Below, in pieces: positions 2,466 through 40,797 of a DNA stretch of 42,295 nucleotides. The stretch's first letter is position 1. Every line of letters begins with the position of its first letter. The stretch lies in assembly GCA_030765555.1 (NCBI GenBank), contig JAVCCI010000027.1, positions 1-42,295 of the forward strand, read 5' to 3'. Both the position numbers and the translations under genes were made by a program. A model generated the notes under the pieces. It was not told the DNA's origin. It was given only the letters and a program-made list of their open reading frames with translations, and made no database searches. Source of the stretch: Candidatus Kappaea frigidicola. GTDB lineage: Bacteria > Omnitrophota > Gorgyraeia > JAGLLT01.

Positions 2466-3140
2466 GTGGGAATAAAATATAAGGTTAATAGAGATATCTT
2501 TAAAACATGGTCCCGAACAATGGCATACGTTTTGGGGCTTTGGTTTGCTGATGGTAGCCTTGAAGACGCATGGTATATTAGAGGTAAATATATTAGGTTT
2601 GTAAGTACAGATTATAGTTTGACATTATCAGTTAAGCACATTTTAGCAGCACAGCATCCAATAAAAATACTACCTCCTACTACAAAAAATGGCAAGAGGA
2701 AATATTTCATAAGGATAGGTGATCACGAGATTTATACTGATCTTGAAAAATTAGGGGTTCATCCGAACAAATCACTTACCATGAAATTTCCTCAAGTTCC
2801 TATTGATTTTCTTTCTGATTTTGTGCGCGGATATTTAGATGGTGACGGATGTGTACATATAGAAAAAGCTAAAAGAAGAATTAAGGTTATTTTTACGTCT
2901 GGGAGTAAGAATTTTTTGCAAGCTCTTTCTTTAACTCTTTCAAAATCATGCAAATTGATACATAATAAAGTATTTGATAGCCATAGAAGCTATCAGTTGC
3001 GCTATGCATCTGCGGAAGCATTAAAATTATTAAACTATCTCTATGATGACCTTAAAAAAGACATTCCATATTTAAATAGAAAATATCAAATATTTCAGAG
3101 ATATTTGTTAGAACGAAAGGCGGTATGCCCAAGCGGTTAA
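2466..3140 (+). CDS. Free-standing two-motif LAGLIDADG homing endonuclease family protein
   Basis: AYVLGLWFADGS and DFVRGYLDGDGC helices, LGVHPNKSL linker, YLNRKY tail; AAAGGAG SD before GTG. Confidence 0.9.
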   Translation: MGIKYKVNRDIFKTWSRTMAYVLGLWFADGSLEDAWYIRGKYIRFVSTDYSLTLSVKHILAAQHPIKILPPTTKNGKRKYFIRIGDHEIYTDLEKLGVHPNKSLTMKFPQVPIDFLSDFVRGYLDGDGCVHIEKAKRRIKVIFTSGSKNFLQALSLTLSKSCKLIHNKVFDSHRSYQLRYASAEALKLLNYLYDDLKKDIPYLNRKYQIFQRYLLERKAVCPSG

Positions 3141-3194
3141 GGGGACGGTCTGCAAAACCGTTATTCATCGGTTCGAATCCGATTGCCGCCTCCA
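3119..3194 (+). tRNA. tRNA-Cys (GCA)
   Basis: GGCGGTA/TGCCGCC acceptor stem, ACGGT-ctGCAaa-ACCGT anticodon arm, GGTTCGAATCC T arm, U73 and encoded CCA. Confidence 0.97.
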
Positions 3195-3215
3195 GTAAAT
3201 ATTAATTTTTTATAA

Positions 3216-3302
3216 GGGCGAGTGGTGGAATGGCAGACACGTGGGACTTAAAATCCCATGGATGAATAATCCGTGTGGGTTCGACTCCCACCTCGCCCAC
3301 CA
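3216..3302 (+). tRNA. tRNA-Leu (TAA)
   Basis: GGGCGAG/CTCGCCC acceptor stem, TGGGA-ctTAAaa-TCCCA anticodon arm, long variable arm, GGTTCGACTCC, CCA. Confidence 0.97.
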
Positions 3303-3611
3303 TTCTACTTCGCCAAGCAACTTTCGTCCTTGGCTTCGTAGGAATGCGAAAATGTAAGCCCGAGTGCATGGCAAATGGCTAAGGGCATATAAAAAACAAT
3401 AACCAAGACAAAACAGGATTAATCCCGCCAGAGGCGGACAGGGATTAAGACGCTCATTATTGACAAATTGTTGGTGAGCTCTAAGGATTAAGTAAAAAGC
3501 AAAAAAACATAGAAAAAAACAAAAAGATAATTATTCGCTTGTGACTTATGACTGGTGTCTTGTGACTTGTGTTTTGTAACTTGTGACTTAAATATTAGAA
3601 TGAGCGAAGGT
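3303..3611 (+). repeat. Heptamer-arm intergenic element, copy A, with tRNA-trailer hairpin
   Basis: GGATTAAGACGCTCA...GTGAGCTCTAAGGATTAAG module, A-rich core, seven CTTGTGA-type units at 3538-3586, GAATGAGCGAA end. Confidence 0.85.
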
Positions 3612-3612
3612 G

Positions 3613-3689
3613 GGGCGCATGGCGCAGTTGGTTAGCGTGCTTGCATGACATGCAAGAGGTCATAGGTTCGAATCCTATTGTGCCCACCA
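3613..3689 (+). tRNA. tRNA-Val (GAC)
   Basis: GGGCGCA/TGTGCCC acceptor stem, CTTGC-atGACat-GCAAG anticodon arm, GGTTCGAATCC, CCA. Confidence 0.97.
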
Positions 3690-3940
3690 TTCTACTTCGC
3701 CAAGCAACTTTCGTCCTTGGCTTCGTAGGAATGCGGAAATGTAAGAGCGGGTGCATGGCAAATAGCTAATAGCTAATAGCGAAGGGCTAAGGGCAAATAG
3801 CGTAGAGCGGATAAAAAAACAATAACCAAGACAAAACAGGATTAAGAATTAAGGATTAAGTTAGAAGCAGGATTTGAGTACAGAATTAAGTAAAAAAACT
3901 TAATTCTTAGAGCGAATAAAATGAGCGTCTTAATCCTAAT
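3690..3940 (+). repeat. Heptamer-arm intergenic element, copy B (empty cassette)
   Basis: Eight GCTAATA-type units at 3758-3813, GGATTAA units, right arm 3899-3934 matches 7025-7060 at 35/36. Confidence 0.85.
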
Positions 3941-6211: not shown

Positions 6212-6409
6212 ATGCCAAAACTTAAAACAAATAAAGGGACGGCTAAGCGTTTCAAAGTAACCAAAAACGGTAAAATTAAACGCAATAAAGCTGGTAGTAG
6301 TCACATTTTAAGTAAAAAAACTAGAAAAAGAAAAAGAAGCTTAAGGCGGGGTGCAATGGTCGATCAGAAAGATGAAAAACGATTAAAGCAGTTATTACCC
6401 TATAGTTAA
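6212..6409 (+). CDS. rpmI: 50S ribosomal protein L35
   Basis: [17 protein letters not shown]; infC-rpmI-rplT order. Confidence 0.98.
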
Positions 6410-6437
6410 TAAAAATTTTTTAAGGAGGAATTGAATT

Positions 6438-6806
6438 ATGCCTAAAGTAAAACATGCGCCTGCATCAAAGAAAAGAAAAAAGCGGGTGCTAAAGGCGGTA
6501 AAGGGTGCTAGAGGCGGGCGTAGTAAGCTTATCATAAGCGCCAAAGAAACTCTTAATAGAGCGCTTGCCTATGCATATAGGGATCGTAAGGTTAAGAAGA
6601 GGGAATATAGAACTCTCTGGATAACTAGAATTACAGCAGCTTGCAAGTTGCATGCTATAGGTTATTCAAAATTTATTAATGGATTAACTAAGGTCAAGAT
6701 TGTTTTGAATAGGAAAATGTTGGCTGAAGTTGCTGCAACTGATGACAACGCTTTTTCAAAACTAGTAAAATTAGTTAAAGAATCAGGATTAAAAAAGCAG
6801 GATTAA
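6438..6806 (+). CDS. rplT: 50S ribosomal protein L20
   Basis: AYAYRDRKVKKREYRTLWITRI, LNRKMLAEVA. Confidence 0.98.
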   Translation: MPKVKHAPASKKRKKRVLKAVKGARGGRSKLIISAKETLNRALAYAYRDRKVKKREYRTLWITRITAACKLHAIGYSKFINGLTKVKIVLNRKMLAEVAATDDNAFSKLVKLVKESGLKKQD

Positions 6807-7090
6807 GGATTAAGACGCTCACGATTGACGAATTGTTAGTGAGCTTAAAGGATTAAGTAAAAAGCAAAATCAAGTGAAATATAGGATTAAGAAAATAAAT
6901 GAAAACTTTTAAGGATCTTATTATATTAAGTAATGATTTAAATTATCTGGATGAAGCTGCAAGTGATAAAGTAAATAGCATGTGTGAGGAAATAGGAAAA
7001 ATGCTTTATGGTTTACAGAATAAGCTTAATCCTTAGAGCGAATAAAATGAGCGTCTTAATTCTTAGAGTGAGCGAATGCGAACGTCTTGA
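6800..7090 (+). mobile_element. Heptamer-arm element, copy C: inverted-repeat cassette enclosing a four-helix-bundle remnant
   Basis: TAAGGATTAAGACGCTCA (6804-6821) is inverted at 7048-7065 (17/18); ends AGAGTGAGCGAATGCGAACGTCTTGA; mobility is inferred. Confidence 0.65.
6899..7036 (+). pseudogene. Internally deleted four helix bundle protein (23S rRNA IVP / TIGR02436-like) remnant, 45 aa
   Basis: MKTFKDLI-ILSNDLNYLDEAASDKVNSMCEEIGKMLYGLQNKLNP*: family-like N-terminus (FxDLxVW) joined to the last helices (DLxYL...EEIGKML) with the middle missing; recognised by eye. Confidence 0.75.
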
Positions 7091-7142
7091 TAGTTAATTA
7101 TTTAAAGTATCTAATAGGTATAATATATAAGGAGGTAGAACT

Positions 7143-7451
7143 ATGAATAAAGCTATAATAATGGCAAAAATCAAAAGACAGCAAGCAGAATTAGGTGAAA
7201 TCATAGCTGAAATCAGCAAAGATAGAAGGTTGAATAATATTTTGCGTGTGTTAGAGGTAAGGTATAGGGAAACAGAGCAGCTTTTAGATGCTATGGGTGA
7301 TAAGAGTTATATTCCAAAAGGTATTGAGGACTTAGATGCTCTTGATGAAATTAAAATAACAGAAAAGAAAATCGGTAAGATTAAAACCAGCATTAAGAAA
7401 ATGAAGCAACTGGACAAAGAAAAGAAGAAAATAGAAAAGAAGCTGAAATAA
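7143..7451 (+). CDS. Hypothetical Lys-rich coiled-coil protein
   Basis: AAGGAGGT SD, 102-aa ORF ending 4 bp before pheS; no family recognised. Confidence 0.75.
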   Translation: MNKAIIMAKIKRQQAELGEIIAEISKDRRLNNILRVLEVRYRETEQLLDAMGDKSYIPKGIEDLDALDEIKITEKKIGKIKTSIKKMKQLDKEKKKIEKKLK

Positions 7452-7455
7452 TTTT

Positions 7456-8460
7456 ATGCTTAAGGAGATAAAAGAATTACAGAAAGCTGCTTTTTCTGAG
7501 CTTGATAAAGCTCAATGCTTAAAAGATATAGAAAAAATAAGAATAAAATATTTAGGAAGAAAGAGTAAGCTTAGTCAAATTTTAAAAGGCCTCAAAGACT
7601 TAACGGCTGAACAAAAAGCAGACGTTGGTAAAGCTGCTAATGTTTTAAAGCAGAAGATTAATAAGGAAATTGAGGCCAATATAAGTGCATCTAATGAATC
7701 TAGCTTAGGAGCTAATATTGATGTTACAACCCCAGGCATTAAAAATGCATGTGGTCATCTGCACCCAATTACGAAAACTATATATGAAATATGTGATGTT
7801 TTTGTGTCCTTAGGCTTCAATGTGGTAGAGGGGCCCGAAGCAGAGAAAGAGCGTTATAATTTTGAAGCGCTGAATATTCCTCTTGATCATCCAGCTAGAG
7901 ATGCTTTTGATACATTTTATATTAAAGATGATCTTCTCTTGCGTTCGCATACTTCCCCTGTTCAAGCTAGAGTAATGGAAAAAGAGTCACCTCCTCTTGC
8001 TATCATTGTACCCGGCAAGGTCTACAGGCCGGATGCTGTAGATGCCACCCATTCGTTTATGTTCCATCAAGTAGAAGGCCTCTTAGTGGATAAGAATATA
8101 ACTTTTTCAGATTTAAAAGGAACTCTTTCTGTTTTTGCTAGAAAGATGTTTGGTAAGGATGTTAAAGTAAGATTTCGACCTCATTTCTTTCCATTTACAG
8201 AACCAAGTGCCGATTTAGATGTTTCCTGTTTTGTATGTAATCAGAAAGGTTGCCGTGTTTGTTCTAATACCGGGTGGCTTGAAATAGGTGGTGCTGGTAT
8301 GGTTGATCCAGAGGTTTTTAAAGTTGTAAAGTATGATTATAATGAGTTTAGTGGATTTGCTTTTGGTATGGGTGTGGAAAGAATAGCTATGTTGAAATAT
8401 GGTGTAAATGATATTAGATTATTTTTTGAAAATGATTACAGATTTTTAAAACAATTTTAA
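7456..8460 (+). CDS. pheS: Phenylalanine--tRNA ligase alpha subunit
   Basis: GHLHPI, HPARD, LRSHTSPVQ, FHQVEG, FPFTEPS, GFAFGMGVER. Confidence 0.98.
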   Translation: MLKEIKELQKAAFSELDKAQCLKDIEKIRIKYLGRKSKLSQILKGLKDLTAEQKADVGKAANVLKQKINKEIEANISASNESSLGANIDVTTPGIKNACGHLHPITKTIYEICDVFVSLGFNVVEGPEAEKERYNFEALNIPLDHPARDAFDTFYIKDDLLLRSHTSPVQARVMEKESPPLAIIVPGKVYRPDAVDATHSFMFHQVEGLLVDKNITFSDLKGTLSVFARKMFGKDVKVRFRPHFFPFTEPSADLDVSCFVCNQKGCRVCSNTGWLEIGGAGMVDPEVFKVVKYDYNEFSGFAFGMGVERIAMLKYGVNDIRLFFENDYRFLKQF

Positions 8461-8702: not shown

Positions 8703-10772
8703 ATGCTAATAAGTTATAATTGGTTAAAAGATTTTACGAATATTAAGGATAGTCCTGAAAGACTTGCCCATATGCTTACTATGGCTGGAATAGAAGTGAG
8801 TTCACTTGAAAAAATAAATGACGATTTCATTTTTGATGCAGAAATTACGCCAAACAGACCAGATTTATTATGCACAAAAGGAATTGCCAGAGAAGCCGCT
8901 TGTTTAATGCATAGTGAGTTTAATGATCCTTTTAGTTTTAGCGTAGAAGACAGGCCTTCTGGCAGTAGTATTGATCTTGAAATTAGACAAAAAGAAGTTT
9001 GCTCTAGGTATAGTGCAACTCTTATTAAAGATATTCAGGTTAAGGTATCGGATGAAAAAATTACAAGACGTCTTTCGGCGCTAGGTTTGAGGCCAGTCAA
9101 CAGCATTGTTGATATAACTAATTACTTTCTTTTGGGCTGGGGTCAGCCTATGCACGCCTTTGATTATGATAAAATAGAGGGTCATAAAATCATTGTTCGT
9201 TATGCTAGGAAAGGCGAAAAGCTTTTAGCTTTAGATGGAAAAGAGTATGAATTAGATGAAACTATATTAATTATTGCCGACGCAAAAAAACCCATTGCAA
9301 TTGCTGGGGTAATAGGGGGCGTCAATACAGAAATTGGTTTGGAAACAAAAAATGTGTTATTGGAATGTGCTAGCTTTGACTCTATTCAAATAAGAAAGGC
9401 CGCGCGAAAATTAGGAATTTCAACTGATTCATCATATAGATTTGAAAGAGGTGTTCCCATTGCCTCTGTGGGTGAAATATCTCTGGCGGCTGCATCTTTC
9501 ATTCAGCAAAAAGCTGGTGGTAAAATCACCGATAATATAGACATATCTAGTCTTGAGTCAGAAAAAATTACCTGCACTTTAAGGCTTTCTGAGATTGAAA
9601 GAATTTTGGGAATTGTCATTTTGCAGGATGATGTTAAGAGAATTTTAGTTTCACTTGGCTTTGCCATAGAAAATGAGACTCAAGGTTCTATGGATGTTAC
9701 CTCACCCTATTTTAGGGAAGATGCTAAGCGAGAGATAGATTTAATAGAAGAAATTGCACGTATATATGGATACGATAAAATGCCATCAACAATTGCTAAG
9801 GTGAGCAGCAGAGAGATTAGCAAATATAAATCATTATCAGGGATAATTGATGAAACAACAAGATTTACAATTAAGAAAAAAATTTGCCAGGCATTATGTG
9901 CTTGTGGCTTAAATGAAGTAATTACTTATAGCATGATTAGTGATAAGGAATCAGCTGTTTTTAGTTATAAATCTGATGAAATTGTTAAGCTTCAAAAGGC
10001 TCTAAGTAGCCAGCAGGAAGTAATGCGACCAACTCTTTTAAGTGGCCTTATGCAGGCGTTAAGCTGGAATATTAATAGGCAAATGGATGATATTGGTGTT
10101 TTTGAATTAGGGGATGTATTTGTAAATCAAAATCATAAATTTTCTGAAAAATTAAATGTAGCTTTTGGTTTATGTGGTAAGAAATATATAAGTGATTGGA
10201 AGCACAAACCCAAAGAAGTTGATTTTTATGATTTAAAAGGTATTCTTGAAAATTTATTTGAAACCTTAGGTATTGAGGAAGTTAAATTTTTAGAATGCAA
10301 AGATTCATATTTTTTAAAAGGTGAGAGGGCTAAAGTTAGTTATAAAAATAAAATTATTGCTAAATTTGGCAAACTTACCAAGGAAGTTGTTTCTATATAT
10401 GATGTTGATAAAGATGTTTATGTAGCTGAAGTATATTTAGAAGATATACTTGGCGATGTATGTTTAGAAAAGAAATTTGAACCTATAGCAAAATTTCCAG
10501 CTGTCATTAGAGACTTAGCCGTAATTGTAAAAACTGGTTTGTCGACGAAAGAAATTATTGATGAGATTAAGAAGACGGGCAAGCATCTCATTAAAGAGGT
10601 TAGTTTATTTGATGTTTATGAAGGCAAGCAGATACCTGCTGGGTATTTAAGCTTGGCTTTTTCTATTAAATATCAGGCTGAAGACAGAACTTTAGTTGAT
10701 GAAGAAGTTGACGAAATTCAAACTCAGATTCAAAAAGTTTTAGTTGAAAATCTTAAGGCTCAAATTAGGTAG
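8703..10772 (+). CDS. pheT: Phenylalanine--tRNA ligase beta subunit (short form lacking the B2 OB-fold)
   Basis: MLISYNWL, ITPNRPD at about residue 50, GQPMHAFD, SYRFERG, DLIEEIAR, C-terminal FDX-ACB domain. Confidence 0.97.
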   Translation: MLISYNWLKDFTNIKDSPERLAHMLTMAGIEVSSLEKINDDFIFDAEITPNRPDLLCTKGIAREAACLMHSEFNDPFSFSVEDRPSGSSIDLEIRQKEVCSRYSATLIKDIQVKVSDEKITRRLSALGLRPVNSIVDITNYFLLGWGQPMHAFDYDKIEGHKIIVRYARKGEKLLALDGKEYELDETILIIADAKKPIAIAGVIGGVNTEIGLETKNVLLECASFDSIQIRKAARKLGISTDSSYRFERGVPIASVGEISLAAASFIQQKAGGKITDNIDISSLESEKITCTLRLSEIERILGIVILQDDVKRILVSLGFAIENETQGSMDVTSPYFREDAKREIDLIEEIARIYGYDKMPSTIAKVSSREISKYKSLSGIIDETTRFTIKKKICQALCACGLNEVITYSMISDKESAVFSYKSDEIVKLQKALSSQQEVMRPTLLSGLMQALSWNINRQMDDIGVFELGDVFVNQNHKFSEKLNVAFGLCGKKYISDWKHKPKEVDFYDLKGILENLFETLGIEEVKFLECKDSYFLKGERAKVSYKNKIIAKFGKLTKEVVSIYDVDKDVYVAEVYLEDILGDVCLEKKFEPIAKFPAVIRDLAVIVKTGLSTKEIIDEIKKTGKHLIKEVSLFDVYEGKQIPAGYLSLAFSIKYQAEDRTLVDEEVDEIQTQIQKVLVENLKAQIR

Positions 10773-10818: not shown

Positions 10819-10982
10819 GGAAAACAATTCCCTGCCTTGTGCGTGAAGGGCGCATAGGTTTGAGCCAACACCATTTTAAGGGGAACCTAACTTCATGATG
10901 CCTGAGGGCAGAATGAGAGGGTGCCCACTTAGTAGATTGGGTTCAAAACTATCACTTTCTCACGGCTATGGCGGGGATTTTT
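10819..10982 (+). ncRNA. ssrS: 6S RNA
   Basis: GC-rich rod: TTCCCTGCCTTGTGCGTGA pairs with TCACGGCTATGGCGGGGAT, TTTGAGCC pairs with GGTTCAAA, central bubble; own promoter; typical position after pheT; ends approximate. Confidence 0.8.
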
Positions 10983-20755: not shown

Positions 20756-20836
20756 ATGCCTCTCTGGTTTATATTATTAGGTTTAACTATAATATTTTGC
20801 AGAACAAGCAAGAGACAAAACAGGATTAAGGATTAA
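20756..20836 (+). CDS. Possible 26-aa hydrophobic peptide or truncated membrane-protein gene
   Basis: AAGGAG SD then MPLWFILLGLTIIFCRTSKRQNRIKD*; stop supplied by the GGATTAA repeat. Confidence 0.35.
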   Translation: MPLWFILLGLTIIFCRTSKRQNRIKD

Positions 20837-21126
20837 GAATTAAGGATTAAGTTAGAAGCAAGAAATAGCAAAGAGCTAATAGCAAATAGCGTATAGCGTA
20901 TAAAAAACAATAACCAAGACACAAGAGACAAGAAACAAATAATAACCAATGACCAAATTCAAATAACCAAACAAAAAGCAAAAGCAAAAAAAAGAACAAA
21001 AAACAAAAAGATAAGAGTTGCGGTTTGATTATTGGATATTGGAACTTAAATATTGTTTGTAACTTGTAACTTGTATCTTGTATCTTGTTTCTTAATTTTT
21101 AGAGTGAGCGAACGCGAATGTCTTGA
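20812..21126 (+). repeat. Heptamer-arm intergenic element, copy D
   Basis: GGATTAA, GCTAATA, ACAAGAN and AACCAAT units on the left; TTGGATA and CTTGTAW units on the right; ends AGAGTGAGCGAACGCGAATGTCTTGA. Confidence 0.88.
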
Positions 21127-21132
21127 GATTAT

Positions 21133-22176
21133 ATGGAAAAATATAAAAAAATATTAATTGTAAGGACAGATAGAATTGGAGATGTGGTTTTATCCACTCC
21201 TGTCATAGAATCTATAAGAGCGGCATATCCACAGGCTTGGTTGGCTTTTATGATTAGGCCTTACGCTGCTGATATCCTTGCAGATAACCCTTGTTTGAAT
21301 GAAGTTATTATATACGATAAGCACCATAAGCATAAAAGTTGGTATGCCAGTTTCAAATTTGCCCAAGAACTAAAGTGTATGCATTTCGATGTGGCTATTA
21401 TTCTTCATCCGAGCAATAGAGTTCATATAATAACCTATCTTGCTGGAATTCCTCAAAGAATTGGGTATGACAAAAATTTTGGTTTTCTTCTGACGGAAAA
21501 AATAAAAGATGAAAAATTTAGAGGTTTAAAGCATGAAGTTGAATACAATTTTGATTTATTAAAAATTTTAGGTATTAATAGTGAATCTAAAAAAACACAT
21601 ATAGAAGTATCAAAACGAGATACTGATGTGGTTAAGAATCTTCTTTTGAATAAAGGCATTGAAGAAAATGATAAGTTTATTGTAATGCATCCGGCGGCCA
21701 GCTGTTCTTCGAAGATATGGCTAAAGGAAAATTTTATAAAGGTAGCCAAACAATTGTTAAAGGATATAAAAACCAAAATAGTGCTTATCTGTTCGGATGA
21801 GCACCTAAACATTTGTCAGGAAATTTACAAAGAACTTCCTTCCCAAGCGGTGATTATTATTAATGATTTGGAACTTAAGCAACTTGCTGCTTTATTTAAA
21901 AAAGCGGAATTGCTGATCTCAAACGACTCAGGTCCAGTGCATATAGCCGTTGCTGTTGGTTGTCCTGTGGTTGATATTTTTGGCAGAAGCCAGCCAGGTT
22001 TAAGCCCTAAACGCTGGGGGCCCCTTGATGAGAAGAGTATTGTTTTGCATAAACCAGAAAATTGTCACCCCTGTTTAGCTCATAATTGTAAGCGCAATTA
22101 TAAATGTCTTAAAAATATAGAAGTAAAGGACGTAGTAAATGCGGCAGAAAAATTATTCAAAAATATTAGTAATTAA
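21133..22176 (+). CDS. Glycosyltransferase family 9
   Basis: RTDRIGDVVLSTP, NDSGPVH, CHPC. Confidence 0.92.
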   Translation: MEKYKKILIVRTDRIGDVVLSTPVIESIRAAYPQAWLAFMIRPYAADILADNPCLNEVIIYDKHHKHKSWYASFKFAQELKCMHFDVAIILHPSNRVHIITYLAGIPQRIGYDKNFGFLLTEKIKDEKFRGLKHEVEYNFDLLKILGINSESKKTHIEVSKRDTDVVKNLLLNKGIEENDKFIVMHPAASCSSKIWLKENFIKVAKQLLKDIKTKIVLICSDEHLNICQEIYKELPSQAVIIINDLELKQLAALFKKAELLISNDSGPVHIAVAVGCPVVDIFGRSQPGLSPKRWGPLDEKSIVLHKPENCHPCLAHNCKRNYKCLKNIEVKDVVNAAEKLFKNISN

Positions 22177-38023: not shown

Positions 38024-38199
38024 GTTTAAGGATTAAGACGCTCACCAGTAATAAATTGATAACGAGCTTTAAGGATTAAGTTACAAGTAAAAGTTATACC
38101 CTTTTACCCTTTCGGGCACAAGCAAGACACAAGTCACAAACAAAAAGCAAAAGAACAAAAAAGTAAAAAAATAGAGTGAGAGAACGCGAATATTTTGAT
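38024..38199 (+). repeat. Heptamer-arm intergenic element, copy E (no T-rich right arm)
   Basis: GGATTAAGACGCTCAC...GAGCTTTAAGGATTAAG, ACAAG units, A-rich core, AGAGTGAGAGAACGCGAATATTTTGA end. Confidence 0.85.
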
Positions 38200-38245
38200 A
38201 TAAGAAGTGAAACAATGGGCATACTATATAACGAAGGGAATAGAT

Positions 38246-39502: not shown

Positions 39503-39801
39503 AAAACAGGATTAAGGATTAAGGCGCTCACCATCGACAAGCTGACGGTGAGCTCTAAGGATTAAGTTAAAAACAAGAAATAAGATACAAGTTACAAGAA
39601 ACAAGATATACCCTAACGGGCACAGGCAAACAATTTCCAATAATCAATAATCAATCATCAAACAGTTTCTCTTGTTTGATTTTAACTTGGTTATTCGAAT
39701 TTGGTCATTGGTTATTATTTGGTTATTGTTTCTTGTCCCTTGGTTATTTTTTTATCCGCTAAACGCTAAAAAAATAGATTGAGCGAATGCGAACGTCTTA
39801 A
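39503..39801 (+). repeat. Heptamer-arm intergenic element, copy F (long imperfect hairpin, minimal loop)
   Basis: GGATTAA module, ACAAGAT and CAATAAT units, central ATCAAACA/TGTTTGAT, TTGGTYA units, GAGCGAATGCGAACGTCTTAA end. Confidence 0.88.
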
Positions 39802-39825: not shown

Positions 39826-40797
39826 ATGAGAAAAATAAAGAGGATAGGTGTTATTACAAGTGGCGGAGATTGCTCAGGGATGAATGCTGCTTTGCGCAGT
39901 GTTGTTCGTTGTGCTATTTATAATAATATTGAGGTTGTTGGTTTTTATAATGCTTATGCTGGTTTGATTAGGAATGAATGTATAAAAATGACACGTCGTT
40001 CAGTTAGTAATATAGTTGGTCGAGGAGGTACTATATTAAAAACTGAGAGATTTGAAAAATTCAGAGAAAAAAAGTGGCAAAAAAAAGCCGTTACTGTTCT
40101 TAAAAAGAATAAAATTGATGCCTTAGTTGTTATTGGAGGTAATGGTTCTTTTGCTGCTGCCCACACATTAAGTAAAGATTGGGGCATAAAAACCATAGGG
40201 ATACCAGCGACGATTGATAATGATGTGAATGGCTCAGATTATGCTGTGGGTACCTTTACAGCTGTAAATGTAGCCTTAGAAGCGATTGATAAAATTAGAG
40301 ATACGGCTACAAGTATGGAACGGATTTTTGTGGTAGAAATTATGGGGCGCAAAGAAGGTTATATTGCTTCTTTGGTGGGTTTGGCTGGGGGAGCTGAAGA
40401 CATTCTTTTACCAGAAATGCCTGTTCATTTAGATGAGATGTGTCAGGATATTAAGGATGGTCGCAAGAGAGGCAAAAAAAGTTGGATAATCGTTGTTGCT
40501 GAAGGAGCTGGTAAAGCTCATGATGTGGCTGATGCAATTTCTTTAAAAACTAATTTTGAGACTAGAGTAGTAGTGTTGGGTCATGTACAACGTGGTGGAG
40601 TCCCGAGTGCTTTTGATAGATCTTTGGCTTCTCGCTTTGGAGCTAAAGCTATAGAACTTCTTCTTGCAGGAAAAACAGACAAAACTACTGCAATTCAAGC
40701 CAACGAAATCATTTCAGTATCTCTGACAACCGCAATCAAACCAATCAAAAAAAATAATACAGAAATATATAAATTAACTCGTATTTTAGCTACCTAA
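39826..40797 (+). CDS. pfkA: ATP-dependent 6-phosphofructokinase
   Basis: TSGGD, GGNGS, PATIDND, EIMGR, LGHVQRGG. Confidence 0.95.
   Translation: MRKIKRIGVITSGGDCSGMNAALRSVVRCAIYNNIEVVGFYNAYAGLIRNECIKMTRRSVSNIVGRGGTILKTERFEKFREKKWQKKAVTVLKKNKIDALVVIGGNGSFAAAHTLSKDWGIKTIGIPATIDNDVNGSDYAVGTFTAVNVALEAIDKIRDTATSMERIFVVEIMGRKEGYIASLVGLAGGAEDILLPEMPVHLDEMCQDIKDGRKRGKKSWIIVVAEGAGKAHDVADAISLKTNFETRVVVLGHVQRGGVPSAFDRSLASRFGAKAIELLLAGKTDKTTAIQANEIISVSLTTAIKPIKKNNTEIYKLTRILAT

Follow-up and report, generated by a model that had tools for sequence, protein, structure and literature searches.

A 45-codon reading frame in Candidatus Kappaea frigidicola is probably a gutted PF05635 four-helix-bundle gene within a hairpin cassette that resembles an rRNA IVS but lies outside rRNA

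Introduction

The window, by which we mean the whole 42,295-nt stretch of DNA that was analyzed, contains downstream of rplT an open reading frame of only 45 codons, set between inverted arms that are built from the heptamer GGATTAA. The question raised by this locus is what so short a frame is, and what it has to do with the repeats around it. A preliminary description, made from the sequence alone, had read it as the two ends of a four-helix-bundle gene (PF05635/TIGR02436, related to the DGR accessory protein Avd) whose middle had been lost in frame, much as MITEs arise from autonomous elements, and had proposed it as the direct link between the protein family and the repeats. The family is a very large one with solved structures and, to our knowledge, with no known function. 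It is called functionally uncharacterized in the accessible text of a 2024 paper on rRNA insertions (PMC11270868).

The remnant and its intact parent

The frame runs from ATG to TAG at 6899 to 7036 on the forward strand, and its translation is identical to the one quoted in the preliminary description. PF05635 matches the 45-residue peptide with E = 1.5 × 10−4 (22.4 bits, cutoff 33.8), placing residues 6 to 38 on positions 74 to 106 of a 106-position profile, and TIGR02436 matches it with E = 1 × 10−4 (22.5 bits, cutoff 24) on profile positions 70 to 108 of 109. This is the C-terminal partial match that had been expected, with the profiles covering the C-terminal helix only and both scores below the curated thresholds, which the 45-residue frame fails when taken alone. 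The family motifs quoted for the 2 termini are visible in a protein alignment of the family (A2); where a length of roughly 120 residues had been claimed for it, the nearest members have 117.

The assembly of this genome has 916 kb in 91 contigs and is 89% complete. A six-frame PF05635 search of it, with E values admitted up to 1, finds 2 places, this frame and a gene on contig C2 (ORF 226-579 of locus L001) that encodes 117 residues and scores 146.8 bits; in the control set of this search, Bacteroides thetaiotaomicron gives a PF05635 match over the cutoff. A full-length parent is thus found in the same genome, where the preliminary description had suggested looking for one, and it sits between the same GGATTAA arms, the left arm with its leader being 98% identical to the window over 100 nt and the right arm 100% identical over 47 nt. 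In the pairwise DNA alignment (A1), the 2 copies are collinear save for one clean gap of 216 columns after position 6918, so that the deletion joint, at which the window copy is short of 216 nt (72 codons), is at 6918 to 6919 (+). Codons 8 to 79 are missing from the window copy and codons 1 to 7 and 80 to 117 are kept, which is the in-frame loss of the middle with both ends retained that had been postulated. Descent of the 45-codon frame from a PF05635 member follows from this alignment to an intact 117-residue gene. A MAFFT protein alignment placed the 7 N-terminal residues on helix 3 instead, a placement overruled by the DNA alignment, in which they are the true N terminus.

The structure model of the parent has a pLDDT of 94.5 and helices at residues 8 to 24, 35 to 54, 59 to 85, and 91 to 115, and the parent matches the solved Xanthomonas S23p homolog 2GSC with E = 3.9 × 10−19. 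Mapped on the predicted structure, the deletion takes out the first 2 helices and the greater part of the third, and the remnant amounts to helix 4 with the tail of helix 3, preceded by the 7 N-terminal residues. A complete four-helix bundle has about 110 to 125 residues, and the 45-residue frame, with residues 8 to 79 gone, is not one.

Outside the assembly, the runs that cover window positions 6300 to 7600 are all DNA runs from salt-lake metagenomes (24 of 24). Two 81-nt metagenome contigs (6868 to 6948) span the deletion joint, with 29 nt on one side, which falls short of the 31-nt threshold for bridging, and metagenome contigs from 4 DNA runs end at the arms.

We hold with good confidence that the 45-codon frame, at 6899 to 7036 (+), is a gutted copy of a gene of the PF05635 ("23S rRNA IVS protein" or Avd-like) family, located in the loop of a hairpin cassette of the rRNA-IVS type that lies outside rRNA. 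The interpretation given in the preliminary description is, in these respects, supported.

Architecture of the cassette

The whole cassette extends from 6785 to 7112 (+), with ends uncertain by about 20 nt either way, and appears as about 320 extra columns in an alignment (A3) with 2 genomes of the same genus. It opens with 3 GGATTAA heptamers at 6786 to 6813 (+), starting at 6786, 6800, and 6807; with those starting at 6850 and 6884, there are 5 upstream of the frame, and their complements are found downstream at 7026 and, as a variant, at 7056. The outer left arm, at 6804 to 6821 (+), pairs as an inverted repeat with the outer right arm, at 7048 to 7065 (+), over 18 nt with 94% complementarity, and this is the closing stem in the RNA fold. 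The inner left arm, at 6843 to 6857 (+), pairs with the inner right arm, at 7025 to 7039 (+), over 15 nt with 87% complementarity, and this pairing is also in the fold. The frame is accordingly bracketed by 2 arm pairs, as the preliminary description had placed it, and terminal inverted repeats close a stem around it (fold z = −3.99), as they do in an IVS. Its last codons had been said to be the right arm itself, and indeed the inner right arm holds the last 4 codons with the stop, the final 12 bases of the ORF (7025 to 7036) falling inside it.

Within the left arm there is a local hairpin, GCTCAC...GTGAGC, at 6817 to 6844 (+), in which the loop and the inner stem vary among copies; other copies retain GCTCACC...GGTGAGC with different loops. 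The leader at 6858 to 6898 (+) contains the fifth GGATTAA (6884 to 6890), is nearly identical to the leader of the parent, and has an AGGA, Shine-Dalgarno-like, 11 nt upstream of the ATG. On the other side, a third right-hand unit at 7055 to 7091 (+) ends in ...CGTCTTGA, the common right terminus of the arm family, beyond which the copies diverge. The right arm has matches on 12 contigs of the genome.

The upstream neighbor is rplT (6438 to 6806), whose frame continues into the cassette's opening heptamers and is closed by the TAA (6804 to 6806) in the second of them, giving it a tail that is not in the relatives; since the second heptamer supplies the stop, the last rplT codons are cassette sequence. 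All 3 frames are closed by stops within 6780 to 6898. Downstream there is a conserved 102-residue ORF, followed by pheS. That ORF (7143 to 7451, +) is lysine-rich and probably a coiled coil, is found in the same place in relatives G001, G003, and G004, and has no Pfam match at E < 0.01 and no NCBIfam match. The cassette thus lies between protein-coding genes and not inside a 23S rRNA gene, and Rfam finds no rRNA in the window. The assembly of this genome has no 23S rRNA in which the same cassette might be sought.

A private promoter or terminator for the cassette was considered and set aside, with 7 promoter-like sites against 3.1 expected, none of them convincing, and with 0 terminators; an outward promoter at the right end was likewise rejected, the hexamer spacing being wrong in most copies. 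Elsewhere in the window, a 6S RNA (RF00013, 79.2 bits) is recognized at 10826 to 10981 (+), after a gene that ends at 10772.

Dispersed copies in the same genome

The window has 19 occurrences of the 9-mer AGGATTAAG, with 0.72 expected, and 0 of 100 shuffles reach 19. BLAST with the 2 arms against the whole genome finds 18 loci on 12 contigs, comprising 1 with the intact gene, 1 with the remnant, and 16 with no gene. Many of the gene-less copies are short, with about 50 nt from the left heptamers to the right arm; those on C67 and C81 keep the leader that precedes the ATG in the parent, and some gene-less copies stand directly before gene starts.

Gene-less copies are also present in the window itself. 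A left-arm copy lies between tRNA genes at 3442 to 3504 (+; 90% over 63 nt), and a short cassette lies just upstream of thrS at 3838 to 3937 (+), with its right arm at 3899 to 3934 (97%). The cassette at 20821 to 21126 (+) is compound, having GGATTAA-type outer arms around nested arrays of other heptamers. Arm BLAST places 2 more of the same arm family at 38026 to 38200 (+) and, again compound, at 39507 to 39799 (+). RNA folding gives arm-to-arm closing stems with z = −3.99 for the cassette with the remnant, −4.71 and −3.19 for the compound gene-less cassettes at 20821 and 39507, respectively, and −2.12 for the intact one. In the tRNA cluster at 3119 to 3686, 2 different tRNA genes share a trailer of about 60 nt (3296 to 3357 and 3682 to 3743, +), with heptamer arrays and an arm copy coming after it in both cases.

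Genome-wide, there are 20 tandem arrays of period 7, and 20 of 20 are outside ORFs; the other periods from 4 to 12 have 0 to 9 arrays each in this genome, mostly within ORFs. Direct sequence descent shows the gene and the dispersed repeats to be parts of a single element. The proposed link between repeats and protein family is borne out by the gene-less copies of the same arms at 16 of the 18 loci, and by the empty rplT site in 3 relatives described below.

Survey of PF05635 loci

To place this cassette within its family, one genome per species was surveyed, 489 relatives were confirmed, and the best 80 of the 489 loci were kept, of which 76 were scored and 4 had no 200-nt flanks. The labels in this set include Omnitrophota, Planctomycetota, Elusimicrobiota, Auribacterota, Nitrospirota, Clostridia, archaea, and others. 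The loci in this and in the second sample below are the best-scoring and not random (80 of 489, and 30 of several hundred), relatives are non-independent, the ORF calls of the script are crude, and the binning of short metagenome contigs may be wrong.

Among the scored loci from the best 80 of 489, the inverted-repeat score of the flanks has a median of 37, against 17 for 429 displaced-window controls, and 67 of 76 exceed the 95th percentile of the controls (Mann-Whitney p = 9 × 10−42). Under a stricter control, a score of at least 30 is reached by 58 of these 76 and by the flanks of 11 of 182 complete neighbor genes. The best tandem period is 7 or 14 in 69 of 152 flanks of the same best 80 of 489, versus 24 of 858 control windows; in most of the loci the left array ends 0 to 70 nt 5′ of the start, and the right array often overlaps the stop. 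Both neighbor ORFs are on the strand of the gene in 64 of the 76 and both are opposite in 2. None of the best 80 of 489 has rRNA (0/80), and 4 have tRNAs nearby.

Strand asymmetry was examined in the left arms of the 67 of 76 loci with a score over 22. Stops in all 3 frames are present in 50 of 67 on the sense strand versus 6 of 67 on the antisense strand; there are 282 sense stop triplets versus 95 antisense, 50 Shine-Dalgarno-like tetramers versus 0, and a purine content of 67%.

Protein identity correlates with the sharing of arm 7-mers (Spearman 0.345, a value reached by 0 of 999 permutations). Two pairs of loci labeled as belonging to different phyla share both protein and arms, L107/L125 with 94% and L099/L100 with 80% protein identity, either by horizontal transfer of the whole unit or as mis-binned contigs (L125 is a 2-kb contig). 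We also note that homologs such as P0040 and P0097 in alignment A2 end in repeated TTYDL-like tails, which are the right-hand heptamer array read in frame, and therefore the position of the stop within the array varies between copies.

A second sample was drawn from a class of small genomes (0.6 to 1.6 Mb; G041 to G245) reached through one of the loci. PF05635 is present in 145 of 201 genomes of this class, with up to 14 matches per genome of about 1 Mb. The 30 best loci from several hundred matches gave 29 that could be scored, of which 27 are over the control threshold; the 2 that fail have mis-called long ORFs. Five other genomes gave 13 of 15 loci over threshold, with 5 of the 15 repeating loci of the first sample. 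Family genes between inverted arrays of units of about 7 nt, co-oriented with their neighbors, are the general layout across phyla.

Turnover in close relatives

The cassette, at about 320 nt, is missing from the rplT spacer in G003 and G001 of the same genus and in G004 of a sister genus, where rplT is separated from the next gene by about 30 nt. Many copies of the arm DNA are present in each of 4 of 5 other genomes of the same family, G003 having none, and in G004 the same arms enclose an intact gene with 90% DNA identity. The 5 relatives' genomes have 2 to 7 PF05635 places each. Most of these paralogs are flanked by inverted arms, with a different heptamer for each paralog, and the heptamers include types that are seen gene-less in the compound cassettes of the window.

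Individual sites show the same kind of variation. The site preceding the gene at 21133 shows the same right end in G002, a cassette of other heptamers in G001, and no cassette in G003 or G004. At the site preceding the gene at 39826 to 40797, where the window has the compound GGATTAA cassette, G001 has a short GGATTAA cassette (L189) and G004 has one of a different heptamer type (L190); this site looks like a turnover hot spot.

These comparisons bear on the strongest rival to a selfish element, which is that the arms are RNA or DNA elements serving the host, such as mRNA-stabilizing or insulating hairpins or regulator sites, with the protein as a trans-acting factor, so that we would be looking at a domesticated regulon, and at a remnant site that needs only its hairpin. 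Between the window copy and the parent, the leader and left arm (6798 to 6898) have 3 differences in 101 nt and the ORF body (6899 to 7024) is 91% identical with 11 differences in 126 nt; arms and leader together have 3 differing bases of 145 against 11 of 126 in the ORF body, with Fisher p = 0.024 for the comparison of these 2 copies. Arms that are better conserved than the ORF body could serve the host. The strict co-orientation of cassettes with operons, the gene-less copies directly before gene starts, and the one intergenic site that is occupied in different genera would fit as well, and the accessible text of a Geobacter paper proposed heptanucleotide arrays as sites of global regulators (PMC2700814). 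On the other hand, orthologous sites differ in occupancy and in heptamer type within a genus, the rplT site being empty in 3 relatives and another in 2; genes and arms are common to different phyla at 80 to 94% protein identity; and broken or truncated copies are common in relatives. Differing occupancy, sharing across phyla, and broken copies fit turnover better than they fit conserved regulation, and we regard the domesticated regulon as a serious but rather doubtful contender.

Turnover could also have run toward loss, with the cassette ancestral at rplT and precisely removed in the relatives. DNA flanked by hairpins is prone to deletion, and the window copy is itself internally deleted. 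That 3 genomes, one of them from another genus, are without the cassette and have a similar spacer of about 30 nt makes this unlikely to our minds, 3 independent clean losses being less parsimonious than one gain. A gain or a loss at the rplT site, in either direction, implies a mobile or unstable unit.

Fate of the remnant peptide

The remnant retains its start codon, its Shine-Dalgarno-like word, its frame, and its stop, and therefore may be translated, as far as the sequence tells. The point of interest is whether a functional mini-protein might result, such as a helix-4 peptide able to enter, or to poison, the ring of the intact paralog, and the in-frame deletion that leaves the ATG, AGGA word, and stop in place would suit such a role. 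The 10 codons that differ from the parent comprise 4 synonymous and 6 non-synonymous differences, and they can be argued in both directions: 3 of the 4 synonymous ones are in the 7 N-terminal codons, where no amino acid is changed, while 6 of 10 non-synonymous codons speak against a maintained product. An in-frame outcome is moreover a 1-in-3 chance, about one of 4 helices is left, and a search of 5.8 billion proteins gave no lookalike of 24 to 79 residues outside the peptide's own cluster. A mini-protein appears to us quite improbable, and the 45-residue peptide is most likely inert.

That the frame arose by chance in AT-rich repeat DNA with no relation to the family, as profile scores below the curated cutoffs might allow, is refuted by the DNA alignment, where the ORF body matches the two ends of this genome's intact family gene at 91% identity.

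Comparison with known systems

ORF-bearing 23S rRNA IVSs are found in Leptospira and others. The case of Coxiella burnetii, as given in the accessible text of PMC4990558, has an IVS in helix 45 of 23S rRNA closed by a terminal stem of 28 bp, with heptameric repeats ahead of the start of S23p and an ORF in decay, and IVSs in rRNA are there described as excised by RNase III. The window cassette resembles it in having a PF05635 ("S23p") gene in the stem loop of terminal inverted repeats and tandem heptamers just 5′ of the start, and in that the RNA element outlasts its decaying ORF (PMC4990558, same text). Unlike it, the window cassette is between genes of the rplT and pheS operon rather than in rRNA, it has many gene-less copies, and no RNase III was found in its host genome or in 7 further genomes of the order.

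For RNase III, 2 Pfam models (PF14622 and PF00636) gave no match in this genome and none across 5 genomes, and TIGR02191 matched 0 of 8 genomes of the order, including this one at 89% completeness, and 4 of 26 genomes of the class. Since the order thus yielded no RNase III, excision by that enzyme cannot simply be assumed here. The absence in this order is unusual for bacteria, if not a problem of sensitivity. As a gauge of RNA-level against DNA-level pairing of the arms, G·U-compatible mismatches were counted, and they number 88 in the sense and 74 in the antisense orientation (p = 0.31).

The Correia elements of Neisseria are MITEs that form transcribed hairpins. Like such hairpin MITEs, the cassettes are short, multi-copy, and intergenic, have inverted ends, are probably co-transcribed with their neighbors, and are present or absent at a site between relatives, and the short form is related to a longer gene-carrying form by internal deletion. 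Inverted ends, many copies, and presence/absence between relatives are thus all found; a transposase in the parent is not, its element having as its only ORF the PF05635 protein, which belongs to no known transposase family. No direct repeat indicating a target-site duplication is evident at the ends of the examined copies, where ends are uncertain by about 20 nt, and the arms are 7-nt arrays and not unique terminal repeats. The MITE-like derivation in the preliminary description therefore stands as to internal deletion from a gene-carrying form, and is otherwise an analogy only. No mobilizing enzyme is evident for the cassette, whose sole gene is for a 117-residue helical bundle.

RAYT is a catalytic HUH/Y1 transposase. 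The REPIN-RAYT system has one or a few small genes flanked by inverted repeats that are also dispersed gene-less in intergenic regions, as in the genome at hand; unlike RAYT, PF05635 has no known catalytic activity, and the build of the arms differs.

PF05635 is described as Avd-like in the accessible text of PMC10053308, and it shares with Avd, the DGR accessory protein, a homologous four-helix-bundle fold. Matches to PF22296 (bAvd) and to the NCBIfam Avd model are weak, the latter scoring 12.4 bits against a cutoff of 80. Avd is encoded beside a reverse transcriptase and template/variable repeats; the reverse transcriptase model RVT_1 has matches in 0 of 5 genomes (this one and 4 relatives), and the cassette gene is therefore not a DGR component.

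Cyanobacterial STRR repeats are another repeat class to be mentioned in this context. Intergenic heptamers are on record for Xanthomonas (GGGAATC) and Nostoc (GGGGAYT) in PMC4692102 and for Geobacter as heptanucleotide elements in PMC2700814. According to the accessible text of the former, there are 70 to 75 convergent heptamer pairs capable of forming stem-loops in 2 xanthomonads, and detailed literature on heptameric repeats is unavailable. As far as the accessible text of these papers goes, their heptamers are like those here in being tandem 7-nt units restricted to intergenic DNA, often in convergent pairs, and "S23" and "four helix" have 0 occurrences in either. Unlike the published repeats, those of the window are shown to be the arms of the cassette of a PF05635 gene. 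No general description of PF05635 genes outside rRNA as heptamer-armed cassettes was found in the openly searchable literature.

Proposed explanation and significance

Most simply, the cassette can be read as a selfish passenger of operons that would be transcribed by read-through. Its left array would halt incoming translation in any frame, here that of rplT, and would offer a ribosome-binding word to the cassette gene. Since 7 = 1 mod 3, one stop per 7-nt unit gives a stop in each frame every 21 nt, and such rotation of the stop through the frames would explain the length of the unit. The 2 arrays would then close into a long stem. Internal deletion would make copies decay to gene-less hairpins, which would accumulate and nest, with the 45-codon frame as an intermediate. 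The PF05635 protein probably acts on its own arms, and by homology it may be a pentameric ring like the nucleic-acid-binding Avd.

A wider proposition, which we offer tentatively and would not yet bet on, is that PF05635 proteins and inverted heptamer arrays form a partnership across phyla comparable to that of RAYTs with REPINs. The ring would recognize its own arms and promote their copying or retention, the IVSs of rRNA would be a special case, the excess of heptamers between genes would be debris, and the unit of 7 would have been selected for the rotation of stops through 3 frames.

What this genome contributes is an intact parent together with its in-frame deleted sibling, a count of the gene-less copies, arms that are better conserved than the gene, and a host lineage with no detectable RNase III or reverse transcriptase. 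For annotation, the arms matter because they extend or truncate neighboring genes, as in the tail of rplT here, and break metagenome assemblies. In the class of small genomes PF05635 is a large share of gene content. The questions of whether the protein binds the arms, what agent copies the cassette, and whether the arrays serve as three-frame translational stops in operons are made testable. The window copy is the sibling of an intact cassette, caught midway to a gene-less hairpin, and through it a protein family of no known function is now tied to the repeats that fill the intergenic gaps of this bacterium.
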